Shown: in pieces, positions 20,171-64,000 of the stretch
Numbering within the stretch: position 1 is the first letter of the stretch
Layout: each line of letters opens with the position of its first letter
Assembly (NCBI RefSeq): GCF_053078305.1
Contig: NZ_CP166879.1
Reading direction: 5' to 3' (one strand)
Length of the DNA: 64,000 bases
Notes under the pieces: model-generated
The model's input: the letters and a program-made list of their open reading frames with translations, nothing else
Database searches by the model: none
What the model was told of the DNA's origin: nothing
Program-made: the position numbers and the translations under genes

Positions 20171-21109
20171 TTCCTCGCGCGTTGGCGCACAATCACCGCC
20201 CCGATGCCCGACAACCCACGACGCCACTGCATTGCCCAGTAATACGGCATCCGCCAGTGGCAGACCAGAGGCCAGCCCGGCAAGTACGCCACCGGCATGA
20301 CTGTCGCCCGCCCCAATGGTGTCGACAACTTGCGTTGGAAATGCCGGAATGCAGCCAGAAGCGTCGTTGCTGAAATACCATGCGCCTTCTTTATCGAGAC
20401 GAACGATCAACGGCGCGGCAAATTTCTCCTGCCATTGCTTGCCAAGTGTTGTTATCTCTGCGGATAAAGCAAAACGTTCGGCGGCAATCTCAGCCTCTTG
20501 ACGATTGAGTGACACTAAAGGGCGACAGGCCATGATCCGCGCCAGTAATGCATCCGGGATATCGCCAATACGTGGGCCAAAATCGATAAACGGCGTCACG
20601 TCTTGCAGCTCTTCCAGCCATTCCACTAACAATTCGCCGCAGGGCGAGGCCAGTTGATAACCGGAAAAATAGAGCAGGCTGCCAGGCGCAACGGTTAATC
20701 GCGCCAGCCACTGGCGATTCCACTGATTTTCCACACCGCTGAATGACATAAAAGTACGTTCGCCATCCGGCTCAACCAGCGCCAGACACCAGCCGTTATC
20801 GCCTTCGGCGTTATCGATCAGGCTGATTAACCCCTCTTTCGCCATCCGGTTGCGAATAATCTCCGCCCACACGCCCTGACCGAGCGGCAAGGCATTACCC
20901 GCTTCGATGCCGAGGCGCTTTAACGCCACGGCAATATTCAGTGCGCAGCCGCCAACGTTAACGCTCTGCTGTTTCAGTTCGATATCGCACCCACGCCAGG
21001 GGAGGGCATAAGCGTCGGCGATCACGTCAATGACCGCCGCGCCGACGACCATCACCGGCTGACGCGTGGTTAATTCAGGCAGCAGCGTGTGTAATCGAGC
21101 GCCGCTCAT
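20144..21109 (-). CDS. yegV: PfkB-family sugar/nucleoside kinase
   Basis: 321 aa with a PfkB-type motif (DTIGAGDSHAGG). Confidence 0.8.
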   Translation of the reverse strand: MSGARLHTLLPELTTRQPVMVVGAAVIDVIADAYALPWRGCDIELKQQSVNVGGCALNIAVALKRLGIEAGNALPLGQGVWAEIIRNRMAKEGLISLIDNAEGDNGWCLALVEPDGERTFMSFSGVENQWNRQWLARLTVAPGSLLYFSGYQLASPCGELLVEWLEELQDVTPFIDFGPRIGDIPDALLARIMACRPLVSLNRQEAEIAAERFALSAEITTLGKQWQEKFAAPLIVRLDKEGAWYFSNDASGCIPAFPTQVVDTIGAGDSHAGGVLAGLASGLPLADAVLLGNAVASWVVGHRGGDCAPTREELLLAHKNV

Positions 21110-22110
21110 ACCGCCTCCCGTTGTTGACGATATTTCGCCAGCGCTGTGGCATAGCGGTTGAAATCAAGCTGATTTACTGCATCCAGTTCCGCCTTTAACG
21201 CAGGATCGATAGCGTTAACGCCATGCAACGCGCCGCAAATTGCCGTCGCCATAGCTCCTATGGTGTCTGTGTCGCCGCCAAGGTTAGCGCACAGGACGGC
21301 GCAGCGATTCGGGTCGGTTTGTGCCAGTTCAACCAGCGCAATGGCGCACGGAACGGACTCAATAGTGCTGGTACCTGCGCCAACGACCTGGTAAAGCTGT
21401 TCGCAGGCGGATTCGGTGCCGTCGGCATTGCGCACAATTTTCAGCGCAATCTCCAGACGTGCTGCCAGTGAGGCGCTGAAGGTAGTGATGCGTTTTTGCT
21501 GTGCATGTCGCGCAATTGAAGGCAGTGAATCAACAATCGCTGACCAGCTTTCTCCGTCAATGGCACGAGAAATCGCCCATGCGATGACAACCGCGCCTGC
21601 AACCGCCAGATCGGATTTATGGGTCGGGCTGGACGCCAGCGCCACATCATCAATAAAGGAATCAACATCGTGCGCCGGAAGCAAACAACCTAATGGCGAG
21701 ACGCGCATCGCTGCGCCGTTGGTCACGCCGTTGTTTTCCAGTTCAGCAACGGGTTTACCGTCGCGAATGGCGTTGAGAGCAATCTTCGAGGTCGGACCTA
21801 GTACGTTTTTGTTAAAGGCGTCGAAACGCAGCGCCCAGTCGAGAATATTACGCCCAATCAGATTCGGGTCGATCTTGCCTTCACGTTCCAGTAACGCATC
21901 CGCCAGACACAGCGCCATCGAGGTATCGTCGGTGAATTCGGCGCGGTTAAAATAACAGGCCGCGTTATTCTCCTTTGGTCCAGGCAGAAAACGGTCAATC
22001 CAGCCAAAGTGTGCTTTAACGCGGCTGCGTGGCCAAAGCTCGGAGGGCATCCCCATCGCATCCCCTAACGCCTGCCCATAAAGAGCACCGAGAATACGTT
22101 CTGTTTTCAT
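21106..22110 (-). CDS. yegU: ADP-ribosylglycohydrolase-family protein
   Basis: 334 aa; overlaps yegV and yegT in an operon-like arrangement. Confidence 0.8.
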   Translation of the reverse strand: MKTERILGALYGQALGDAMGMPSELWPRSRVKAHFGWIDRFLPGPKENNAACYFNRAEFTDDTSMALCLADALLEREGKIDPNLIGRNILDWALRFDAFNKNVLGPTSKIALNAIRDGKPVAELENNGVTNGAAMRVSPLGCLLPAHDVDSFIDDVALASSPTHKSDLAVAGAVVIAWAISRAIDGESWSAIVDSLPSIARHAQQKRITTFSASLAARLEIALKIVRNADGTESACEQLYQVVGAGTSTIESVPCAIALVELAQTDPNRCAVLCANLGGDTDTIGAMATAICGALHGVNAIDPALKAELDAVNQLDFNRYATALAKYRQQREAV

Positions 22111-61335: not shown

Positions 61336-62337
61336 TCACACCTCGTACTCCATCTCGCCATCCTTACGCAGCGGTATAATCTGCACCTTCTGCACGCGAT
61401 GGCTTTCTACCTGCAACGTTTTAAGCAAATAATCCCCCACCTGAACTTCTTCGCCAGGTTTTGGAATACGCTGCAAATATTCCATCAACAGCCCGGCAAT
61501 GGTGTGATATTCACGTTTTTCATCCAGCGGCAGCGGCACATATTGCACCAGATCCTCCAGCGGCATATGACCATTCGCCGTCCAGGAACCGTCCGCATTC
61601 TTCTGAATATCATGGCGGGCGTCGATCTCTTCCACTTCGTTCGGTAAGTTACCGGCAATGGTTTCAGTGACGTCACTTAATGTCACAATCCCTTCCACCG
61701 AGCCAAACTCATCCACCACAAAAGCAAAGTGCGTGCGGGCATTACGGAACTGCTCCAGGGCAGGTAACAACGGCAAGGTTTCCGGGAACACCAGCGGCTG
61801 GCGAATCAACACCCGCAGGTTGAGCGGTTCGCCACGCAGAGACTGTTGTAGCAGGTCGATAACGTGAACAACACCGAGCAAATCTTCTGCGTCATCGCCA
61901 TCAGTAACCACCAGCCGCGTATGCTGATTTCGCTCCAGTAACTGGCGGATCTCGTCTTCCGGCGCGTTGAGATCGATATGCTCAATATCGTGGCGCGACG
62001 TCATAATGCTGCTGACGGTACGCTGGTTAAGATTAAGTACCCGCTCAATCATCCGCCGTTCCTGCGGATTAAAGATCTGCTGGTTACCATGATCCACCAG
62101 CATGGACGCGGTTTCGGCGTCCAGTTCCGCATCTTCTTTTTGCCCGCTAAGCAGGCGCATTACCGCTTCGGTAGTCCGCTGGCGCAGCGTCTGGTTAGCG
62201 GAAAGAAAACGTCGCCGGTTAAAGATAGCCAACTGATTGAGCGCCTCGATCATCACCGAGAAACCAATAGCAGCGTACAGGTAGCCTTTCGGAATGACGA
62301 ATATAGCGCGGCGATTTTTTTGATACCGATTTGCATT
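61336..62337 (-). pseudogene. yegH: yegH-like CBS/CorC-domain membrane protein, 5'-truncated: C-terminal ~330 codons present, N-terminal membrane domain missing
   Basis: The frame continues upstream of the GTG at 62256 (...FVIPKGYLYAAIGFSVMIEALNQ...) but hits a TGA at 62338-62340 and then diverges into AT-rich DNA. As I recall, full-length YegH has an N-terminal TerC-like membrane domain of about 200 aa that is absent here. Confidence 0.6.
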
Positions 62338-62429
62338 TCATTTGATACCGCTGAAAAACGCCGATACGCAACTTATTTGATACTAAATCGGCGCTTTTCT
62401 TTTGAGTTTTAGAATGAGTTTTTAAGCGC

Positions 62430-63167
62430 TCATTCACTCTCTTTCAAACCAGTTTTAACTGTTTGTGGTTTTGGGTAAGGCTGGACTTTGAATAGCTTTG
62501 TGTTGAGGCGTTTTCTGGCCCTCTTGTTCAGAAACCGGATGTAACGAAACTGTCGGAACTTATGCACACTGGCTCTGTCGATATTAGCCCTCAGATGTTC
62601 ACCTCGTTGTCCGCCTCGTTTAATGGCATTCCTGCAAATCTCGTGATACCACTCGCCATCAAGTTCATAGAATGTTGATTCATGGCTGCCTACATAATCA
62701 AAATTGCTTGCCTGATACACGACACCAAGACAGCCACAACGCTCATCTGCAAACGACTGAACCCACTGTACCTGCGGATAAAGATGCCTGATTAGCTTGA
62801 GCGCGTAACTGATTGCCCTTGATTCGGAGTTTCTCGGCATACAGTCATGCATCCATAGCCGGTTAAGCTCCATATATTCTCGGTTCTGCGTACCCGTTAC
62901 GACGCGTGCACCACTGTTTGGGTTAAGGGCGTAACCCCATTGCATTACGCCAACAAGTTCCCGTTCTGAAAATATACCCAGATGAAGGTAGGAATTATTT
63001 ACGAAACGGTGGCTGTAATGTTTATTGACGATAACCAGTCTGGCCAGCCAGCAACTTATTGTCTCAACCCGCAACTCACGGGAGCCATAACCAACGATAT
63101 TGTCGTTATAGCGAATAAGTTCAGGCGTGCTGATGATTCGGGATGTGACTTGCTTTCTGTTCCCCAC
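62430..63167 (-). CDS. Mom-like DNA modification protein (putative adenine-modifying acyltransferase)
   Basis: 245-aa ORF directly downstream of, and overlapping, the com-like gene, as in phage Mu com–mom. Assigned by context; I could not verify Mom sequence similarity. Confidence 0.5.
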
Positions 63168-63321
63168 GACAGGATTTCCTTGTGTATGTGGGGTGCTCTG
63201 TGGCGCTCGGAGATGTGATTTGATTGAGGGTTTTACAGCGCGGACATTTTACTTCCAGATAACTGAAACTGGCCCGTGCCAGTAGCTTATTGCAGTGTCG
63301 GCACCGTATGTTTCGATACAT
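63121..63321 (-). CDS. Com-like zinc-finger translational activator
   Basis: [30 protein letters not shown] closely parallels the Mu Com zinc finger as I recall it (IRCKNCNKLLFKADSFDHIEIRCPRCK). Start taken at the internal Met of an 81-aa track ORF. Confidence 0.7.
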
Positions 63322-63361
63322 GGCCGCATAACCTCCTGCTTTGTTGTTGATGTCTTTCTCA

Positions 63362-63510
63362 TGCAATCGATCGACAAAAACGATCGATTCGATTTGTTTA
63401 ATTGATACAACAAATAGATTGAAAAGTCATCAATAATGATTCAGGGAGGTGATTATTTACTTAAAGAAAACGAAGAGTTAGGTGGTGAAAATGATCATAA
63501 AATGATCATT
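63362..63510. promoter_or_regulatory. GATC-rich region upstream of com/mom (candidate Dam-methylation-dependent promoter control)
   Basis: Four GATC sites within ~140 bp (63369, 63382, 63493, 63504), arranged as palindromes tcgatcga / cgatcg and an inverted pair tgatca-taaaa-tgatca. Confidence 0.5.
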
Positions 63511-63730
63511 TTATTGACTTTTTATACAGTGAAGGTAGGATCGCGCGTATATGTAGTATGTTTCAAATCAATGGGATACTACATACATAAAGGGCGACCC
63601 AGATAGCGCGAACTATTCTGGGCCGATTTAGACAATTTTGCATCAATGCTTTACTTCGAGCTCGTGGCGTATCCTATGATATTCCCCGGTCTCCTGTAAA
63701 GCAGAGATGCATAAAAAGGAGATCTTTATC

Positions 63731-63901
63731 ATGGATAAAGAGCCTGTTTGCCCTGCCTGTAAGACTCCCTTACAGCTCATCTATCGCCGTTCTCGATCTC
63801 AAAATGGCAAGACATACAAACCAAAAAATGCTTCCTGTTTCAGGATGCTGATATGTCCTGCCTGTTCTCCCCGGAGGGAAAATACACAAAACGTGCATTA
63901 A
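63731..63901 (+). CDS. Small zinc-ribbon protein (two CPAC motifs)
   Basis: Strong RBS aaggag 10 nt upstream of the ATG at 63731; translation MDKEPVCPACKTPLQLIYRRSRSQNGKTYKPKNASCFRMLICPACSPRREN. Confidence 0.4.
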   Translation: MDKEPVCPACKTPLQLIYRRSRSQNGKTYKPKNASCFRMLICPACSPRRENTQNVH

Positions 63902-64000
63902 CAAATTCACCCGGCAGGGAAACCTGCCGGTCGGTATTGTTACATCATAGTACCGTCAGTTCCGGGCTGAACCGGCTCTGGTTGCTCTACGGGTTGAGGC

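Follow-up and report, generated by a model that had tools for sequence, protein, structure and literature searches.

A probable zinc-ribbon gene with a conserved structured leader, back-to-back with com in Mu-like prophages of Escherichia coli and Salmonella

Proteins of the Ogr/Delta type, small zinc-binding phage proteins with four cysteines (Cys4), activate the late promoters of P2-type phages via the alpha subunit of RNA polymerase, and the cysteines of Ogr are spaced CX2C-X22-CX4C. Com, a zinc-finger protein of phage Mu, is the translational activator of mom, whose start codon lies in an inhibitory hairpin. A tandem Com RNA motif derived by SELEX reads NGAGNNCC(N)2-3GAGNNCC (PMC6483171). 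The mom region of Mu also holds a divergent promoter, momP2, which competes for RNA polymerase (PMC4287176). RalR of the rac prophage is a 64-residue zinc-ribbon protein with an annotated antisense RNA, RalA. Here we describe a further small zinc-ribbon gene, found on the + strand of a 64,000-nucleotide (nt) stretch of contig NZ_CP166879.1 (assembly GCF_053078305.1); we use the term window for the whole of this stretch. An earlier reading made from the letters alone (the sequence-only reading) placed the gene inside a foreign element, and this element is indeed a Mu-like, Sp18-type prophage inserted in yegH. We consider it very probable that this is a real protein-coding gene in a cassette of its own.

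The zinc-ribbon open reading frame (ORF) occupies 63731..63901 on the + strand, as judged from the sequence, its homologues, codon-level selection and an AlphaFold2 model. The ORF listing shows the frame as open over 63707..63901 (+), or 64 amino acids (aa) when counted from the first ATG. The sequence-only reading had proposed a consensus Shine-Dalgarno (SD) sequence and a product of about 56 aa, and both hold: AAGGAG at 63716-63721 is followed by a 9-nt spacer, ATCTTTATC, and then by the ATG at 63731, from which the 56-aa product is MDKEPVCPACKTPLQLIYRRSRSQNGKTYKPKNASCFRMLICPACSPRRENTQNVH. This protein is very basic (net charge about +8) and not hydrophobic, and members of its family are 53-56 aa long. 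Two CPAC motifs, at codons 7-10 (63749-63760) and 41-44 (63851-63862), form the knuckles C7/C10 and C41/C44. Both had been pointed out previously, but with a separation of ~25 residues; the gap between C10 and C41 is 30 residues, which gives the pattern CX2C-X30-CX2C. A fifth cysteine, C35, is not conserved in homologues. The AlphaFold2 model is all-beta and zinc-ribbon-like (mean predicted local distance difference test score 79), with strands predicted at residues 15-19, 22-24, 27-29 and 37-41, so that a beta-hairpin or beta-sheet falls between the two knuckles. Cysteine pattern and fold prediction together make the protein a Cys4 zinc ribbon, and it falls into none of the named families.

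An exhaustive phmmer search (1.84 billion representatives) returned a single distant relative, P0036, a free-standing 53-aa Salmonella protein (E = 1.9e-5) that likewise begins MDKE. The alignment covers the zinc-ribbon part only, with 43% identity over the matched stretch and 44% when the two proteins are aligned in full. Three further Salmonella-type versions came from protein-pattern scans of viral contigs, while a profile search and a search with the Salmonella homologue brought in no additional lineages; in the searches made here the family is seen solely in E. coli and Salmonella prophages of the Mu-like kind. The four cysteines, both prolines of the CPxC motifs and a GKTY[KR]PK loop are invariant in the four-protein alignment, and the CX2C-X30-CX2C spacing is the same in the Salmonella homologues. 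The sequence-only reading had named loss of the cysteines in homologues as one observation that would count against its proposal; all four are kept in the 44%-identical Salmonella homologues. Among distinct full-length protein variants, C7, C10, C41 and C44 are kept in 7/8, and at two of the four cysteine codons there are silent TGC/TGT changes.

The pattern of substitution is that of a translated frame under purifying selection. E. coli and Salmonella copies differ at 20, 14 and 31 sites in the first, second and third codon positions, respectively, and the ratio of nonsynonymous to synonymous differences (pN/pS) is 0.41 in the zinc-ribbon frame, as compared with ~1.0 and 1.4 in the other two frames. 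Changes within lineages are 14 synonymous and 12 nonsynonymous, where 22% would be expected to be synonymous (p = 4e-4). Every one of the zinc-ribbon-type loci fetched from E. coli (28/28) has the frame intact, as do 4/5 distinct Salmonella-type versions, the fifth (locus L071) being frameshifted. Because the homologues keep all four cysteines and the place opposite com, and because the synonymous bias occurs in the zinc-ribbon frame only, we take the gene to be genuine, as the sequence-only reading had it.

The same reading likened the product to Ogr and Delta, and this likeness does not extend beyond the general one of small phage Cys4 zinc-binding proteins, and of genes with a promoter and a terminator of their own, as ogr also has. 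Neither the window protein nor any of the three Salmonella-type homologues matches Ogr_Delta (PF04606) at E<=1, whereas P2 Ogr, as a positive control, scores 1.1e-21; hhalign against Ogr/Delta gives a probability of 2.8% over 10 columns, with one knuckle aligned; the cysteine spacing differs; and the host phage here is Mu-like with a Mor/C-type activator. Com is a neighbour of similar size and likewise a Cys4 zinc ribbon, but the zinc-ribbon protein has no match to Zn_ribbon_Com (PF10122) in a search in which the neighbouring Com scores 1.9e-12, and hhalign gives 18% over 17 columns, again with one knuckle. RalR and Lar share with it a small, basic, zinc-ribbon prophage protein and a thematic link to restriction escape; for Lar_restr_allev (PF14354) there is no match (RalR control, 2.9e-14), and hhalign gives 1.3%. 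On the basis of Pfam, NCBIfam and hhalign, with positive controls positive, membership of Ogr/Delta, Com and Lar/RalR is rejected. The NCBIfam search gave nothing above cut-off for the zinc-ribbon proteins: the YgiT/MqsA-type model TIGR03831 was hit by the Salmonella homologue only (E = 0.04; 14.2 bits vs a cut-off of 20.2), and not by the window protein. PADLOC made no defence or anti-defence assignment, and in PHROGs both homologues weakly match the uncharacterised phrog_9584 (E about 0.01).

Around the ORF, a complete expression unit can be predicted from the sequence. A consensus scan finds a sigma-70-like promoter, TTGACT-16-TAGGAT, at 63514..63541 (+), with a GATC overlapping the -10 element. 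Equivalent sites are TTGACT-16-TAAGAT in locus L010 and TTGACG-16-TATAAT in L070; the latter matches 11/12 positions with a perfect TATAAT, although the DNA upstream of it is unrelated. Abutting the -35 element is a tandem repeat of AAAATGATCAT (x2; 63488..63509) with two GATC sites 11 bp apart, which is a candidate Dam or regulator site. The predicted transcript begins with a leader of roughly 185 nt. At its 5' end is hairpin A (TATGTAGTAT...ATACTACATA; 63550..63585, +), which begins a few bases past the -10 element in each lineage; hairpin B (CCCAGATAG / CTATTCTGGG; 63598..63622, +) follows, and then hairpin C (63639..63711, +), which is long and imperfect and whose outer stem is preserved under the Salmonella substitutions via G.U and C-G pairs. 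The start codon itself is predicted to be the 3-nt loop of hairpin D, UCUUUAUC-AUG-GAUAAAGA (63723..63741, +), a perfect 8-bp stem. For the leader joined to the opening 30 nt of the ORF (63548-63760), the folding energy is -71.3 kcal/mol, vs -48.9 +/- 3.9 for shuffled sequences (z = -5.8). Downstream, between the convergent zinc-ribbon ORF and DUF826 gene, a GC-rich hairpin, CCGGCAGG-GAAA-CCTGCCGG (63911..63930), is likely a bidirectional terminator; the 50-nt stretch that holds it (63896-63945) folds at -21 kcal/mol (z = -4.7), and the Salmonella cassette of L010 has a canonical intrinsic terminator at the equivalent place.

The leader is better conserved than the ORF. When E. coli is compared with Salmonella, 71% of the leader is identical, as against 65% of com, 58% of the ORF and 52% of the com-proximal spacer, and the 52%-identical stretch reaches up to the -35 element. 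Hairpin B is found in seven stem versions, all of them self-complementary, with 61/61 gap-free cells paired; in three pairs both partners have changed, bases gained or lost in one arm are matched in the other, and only 1/5000 arm shuffles equals the observed pairing. In L069 (1400-1730) and L070 (1070-1320) the hairpin-B unit is duplicated in tandem within the leader. No matching family was found in an Rfam search of the leader, and a 17-nt leader motif scanned over genome contigs gave chance matches only, in unrelated phyla. The leader dyads were also considered as phage-wide operator sites for the C protein, and this was rejected, as the rest of the prophage, its other promoters included, has no further copies of them.

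On the other side of the spacer lie com (63121..63321, -; Pfam Zn_ribbon_Com, and a PGAP-called gene at the equivalent locus, PGAP being the Prokaryotic Genome Annotation Pipeline) and mom (62430..63167, -; Pfam Mom, 1.2e-76; ~71% nt identity to Mu mom), the gene for a DNA modification enzyme. Both are on the minus strand, divergent from the zinc-ribbon ORF across a region rich in GATC, just as the sequence-only reading described it: between the com ATG and a point early in the ORF (63322-63800), 479 nt contain 7 GATC sites vs 1.8 expected (P = 0.003). Just upstream of com, a GATC-bearing inverted repeat, AATCGATCG-N7-CGATCGATT (63365..63389), is conserved in the Salmonella loci and is a second candidate Dam or regulator site. 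A motif scan places a tandem Com target, GAGCGCC-ACA-GAGCACC, in the com-mom mRNA at 63192..63208 (-), 25-41 nt before the mom GTG. In the same kind of scan the window's zinc-ribbon leader has no Com RNA motif, which sets it apart from the sequence upstream of mom even though a start codon within an inhibitory hairpin, published for mom of Mu, is predicted here for the zinc-ribbon ORF as well. Some leader variants carry one copy of the motif, buried in the stem of hairpin B. The idea that Com also unlocks the zinc-ribbon ORF is unsupported, since the motif is absent from the window leader.

What follows com varies. Mom is encoded in the window, L011 and L070, and a C5 DNA methylase (Pfam DNA_methylase) in the Salmonella Mu-like prophages L010 (4398-5610) and L069 (1-1204). 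The Com motif is retained in Salmonella prophages that have the C5 methylase in place of mom, and it appears that the Com cassette can be carried from one modification enzyme to another as a controller of translation. The zinc-ribbon cassette is back-to-back with com in every lineage (L010, L011, L069, L070 and the window). In L069 there is an additional 60-aa ORF between com and the zinc-ribbon gene. The arrangement resembles momP1/momP2 of Mu, where a promoter likewise points away from com and mom in a control region sensitive to Dam methylation (PMC4287176). In Mu no such gene lies behind momP2, and gin there is on the other strand, whereas in the window the + strand promoter, ~190 nt from the com ATG, would drive a structured leader and an ORF. 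By analogy, the present divergent arrangement may be an elaborated version of the Mu one.

Our favoured reading, which as a whole we hold with moderate confidence, is that the zinc-ribbon gene is a dispensable accessory gene in a conserved cassette. The small, very basic Cys4 protein would be the payload of a self-contained unit that stands back-to-back with com and runs from the predicted promoter through the leader with its three conserved hairpins to the SD sequence, the ORF and the terminator. The protein would bind zinc, and also either a nucleic acid or a protein partner; translation of its gene may be gated by the leader and the start-codon hairpin; and, with GATC sites within and beside it, the promoter may be sensitive to Dam methylation. 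The gene itself would be a moron-type accessory in a swappable slot, rather than a regulator of mom or the late genes. A swappable accessory is the most likely role because Mu lacks the gene (its order is gin-com-mom, with nothing like the zinc-ribbon gene), and because some sister prophages keep the leader with a different ORF. In the latter, which are of the FORC069 type (L008:2809-3178; also L014, L023 and L025), com, mom and leader are kept and the zinc-ribbon ORF is replaced by a 68-aa ORF (MDKLTTDPKLQ...) and a convergent 66-aa ORF, neither of which could be assigned to a family. A predicted promoter and terminator of its own, and presence that varies among close relatives, are features shared with phage morons; the cassette differs from them in being unusually fixed relative to com and in its long structured leader, which is conserved and persists where the ORF does not.

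Against this stands the proposal of the sequence-only reading that the protein is a regulator of the late or modification genes. It would then regulate the divergent com-modification operon or the late genes, acting through the GATC-rich region or on the com/mom mRNA, and we regard this as doubtful. The divergent layout and the enrichment of GATC in the spacer are in keeping with such a role, as is the linkage to com in every lineage despite the swap between Mom and C5 methylase, and a very basic zinc ribbon is compatible with nucleic-acid binding. By profile, however, the protein is neither an Ogr/Delta nor a Com protein. Mu, D108 and SfMu control mom without a zinc-ribbon gene, and the FORC069-type prophages have com, mom and leader without it; the prophage has a Mor/C-type activator of its own; and the leader dyads do not recur at the other promoters of the phage. 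Nothing here favours a regulatory over an accessory role.

A bolder version of the link to modification, which we judge unlikely, is that the leader (hairpins A-D) is a new cis-regulatory RNA, possibly with an antisense RNA, that ties a swappable cargo slot to the Dam/GATC switch of com-mom, and that the zinc-ribbon protein is a new anti-restriction partner. The protein would in that case be, for example, a restriction-alleviation or nucleic-acid-binding factor working alongside Mom or the C5 methylase.

It is quite improbable, in our estimation, that the locus is a type I toxin-antitoxin-like module such as RalR/RalA, in which a locked mRNA for a zinc-ribbon toxin or restriction-alleviation protein is opposed by an antisense RNA. 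The long structured 5' leader with its occluded AUG would suit such a module, RalR offers a precedent of similar size and type, and the adjoining anti-restriction gene suits the theme. There is also a promoter-like site on the minus strand, TTTACA-18-TAGGAT (63671..63700), conserved in three lineages, which could give rise to an antisense RNA or to a long com leader. This site sits within the conserved hairpin C, so that its conservation is not independent evidence, and for a short antisense RNA no terminator is evident. While the antisense RNA of RalR/RalA is annotated, that of the zinc-ribbon cassette would depend on a promoter that is predicted only. Furthermore, the protein has no relationship to Lar/RalR by profile, most type I toxins are hydrophobic and this protein is not, and neither PADLOC nor Rfam gave a match.

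The view that what is conserved is an element of RNA or DNA, made up of the leader hairpins and the divergent promoters and serving com/mom control, with the ORF as an untranslated passenger, we consider very improbable. It draws on the conservation of the leader, which exceeds that of the ORF, on the persistence of the leader where the ORF has been replaced, on the covariation in hairpin B and on the precedent of a competing divergent momP2 in Mu. It does not account for the codon-position and synonymous-excess signal in the zinc-ribbon frame, for the conserved SD sequence and start, or for four cysteines that stay invariant through silent codon changes; what it says of the leader is compatible with our favoured reading, since a functional leader and a translated ORF can coexist.

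The public annotation treats the region differently. RefSeq, through PGAP, calls the equivalent of 63436..63901 as one 'hypothetical protein, frameshifted' (154 aa) and calls no 56-aa gene; this pseudogene call was found in 5/6 of the full-length variants looked at in E. coli. Its template, a 154-aa ORF, has an open frame in the Sp18 copies of O157:H7 (WP_115801860.1; protein cluster P0001, 205 members). The segment that PGAP merges with the zinc-ribbon ORF is in the window a separate 56-aa ORF (63436..63606, +) that overlaps the predicted promoter, and it is probably spurious. Among 32 E. coli-type loci fetched, the ORF from the ATG equivalent to 63436 is 14, 56, 99, 135, 137 or 154 aa long, with 154 aa reached in 3, and public gene callers disagree, giving two different C-terminal frames. 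In Salmonella relatives the long frame is closed and its N-terminal part is not an ORF. No remote homologue of the first 100 residues (the N-terminal and middle parts) was found in the exhaustive phmmer search, and the 154-aa protein has no match in an NCBIfam family search. An alignment of variants shows that the long frame needs a 1-nt insertion of G directly after ATGGAT, and that the middle segment is indel-rich. The insertion (+G; equivalent to 63738) is derived, is missing from all Salmonella-type copies, and occurs in L003, L006, L016, L018 and L024 on two different leader backgrounds. With it the SD-proximal ATG falls out of frame, where it encodes a peptide of 10 aa, but the insertion also supplies a new in-frame ATG; the zinc-ribbon start is the first ATG in 20/28 E. 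coli loci and this second ATG in the 8 +G copies. With the long frame anywhere between 14 and 154 aa in the E. coli loci and closed in Salmonella, the 154-aa frameshifted pseudogene is most likely an artefact of annotation that goes back to a derived +G allele frequent in O157:H7. That the zinc ribbon is the C-terminal remnant of a 154-aa gene, frameshifted and dead in the window, is hardly credible, even with the frame open in the O157:H7 copies and with other variants marked frameshifted by PGAP, as it depends on the derived +G and on an N-terminal part that is poorly conserved up to the -35 element and contains the predicted promoter and hairpins.

Several observations weigh against the accessory-gene reading that we favour, or against parts of it. 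Structure searches with the AlphaFold2 model gave no significant neighbour and nothing informative, as is expected of a fold so small and generic. The family consists of two divergent lineages only, which makes the conservation evidence shallow, and two of its copies look decayed: L012/L065 has C7Y, and L071 is frameshifted within a run of A. The allele most common in E. coli (+G, of the O157:H7 Sp18 type) has its zinc-ribbon ATG 13 nt from the SD sequence, and the insertion also weakens the pairing of hairpin D. The fixed linkage to com could signify functional coupling, and is the strongest point in favour of a functional link with the modification module. The minus-strand promoter-like site has counterparts at L010 5941-5970 and L070 1260-1289. 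Lastly, G.U counts do not settle which strand's RNA carries the leader structure, although the + strand is favoured by the geometry of promoter, SD sequence and terminator and by a few Salmonella substitutions in hairpin C.

The window holds the right-end portion of the prophage (62302..64000), which extends past the window edge. Its right end (TATAGCGCGGCGATTTTTTTGATACCG...) interrupts yegH, of which a remnant lies at 61336-62301 (-), and similarity to copies of the element at other chromosomal sites begins at TATAGCGCGG, ~62302. In public annotation, related copies appear as a Mu-like phage that has inserted, and one whole prophage was retrieved; the Sp18-type element occurs in Shiga-toxin-producing E. 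coli. Other insertion sites are near ydhT, in lsrC, tagO, dcuC and the elf fimbrial usher gene beside elfD, and inside Shiga toxin (Stx) phages; such unrelated sites are consistent with Mu-type transposition. About 215 E. coli records match the stretch, ~202/215 of them with the full-length region. Beyond the terminator, the 3' end of a DUF826 gene (63940..64000, -; PGAP equivalent locus) is cut by the window edge. The cassette sits in a variable region between the tail-fibre and invertase genes and com/mom, and between the invertase gene and com there is an accessory block of DUF826, DUF1378 and a 680-aa DUF6645 gene (L001:6561-9215) without a Mu counterpart. The prophage also encodes its own Mor/C-family activator and a TraR/DksA-type protein. 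In the prophage of strain OkiPb01677 (L056:24090-34549), an island of ~10 kb (integrase, primase, Icd-like, BRO-N) splits a head-region gene and looks like a satellite or integrative element within the Mu-like prophage; in the same locus, 21105-21184 is annotated 'tRNA-OTHER'.

The zinc-ribbon protein is most likely a new, narrowly distributed addition to the large class of small phage zinc-ribbon proteins, and its description defines both a small protein family, as yet without a name, and a structured leader that is conserved. The most useful outcomes are the covarying leader RNA and the correction of a recurrent annotation, as the region is present in about 200 complete E. coli genomes in which the small gene is mostly missed. 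The cassette lies at the one place in Mu-like phages at which several layers of control (Dam, C and Com) act on a toxic anti-restriction enzyme. Should it prove to be tied to mom control or to the evasion of restriction, a classic model of regulation would gain a component; otherwise, the zinc-ribbon gene would be one further small prophage accessory gene.

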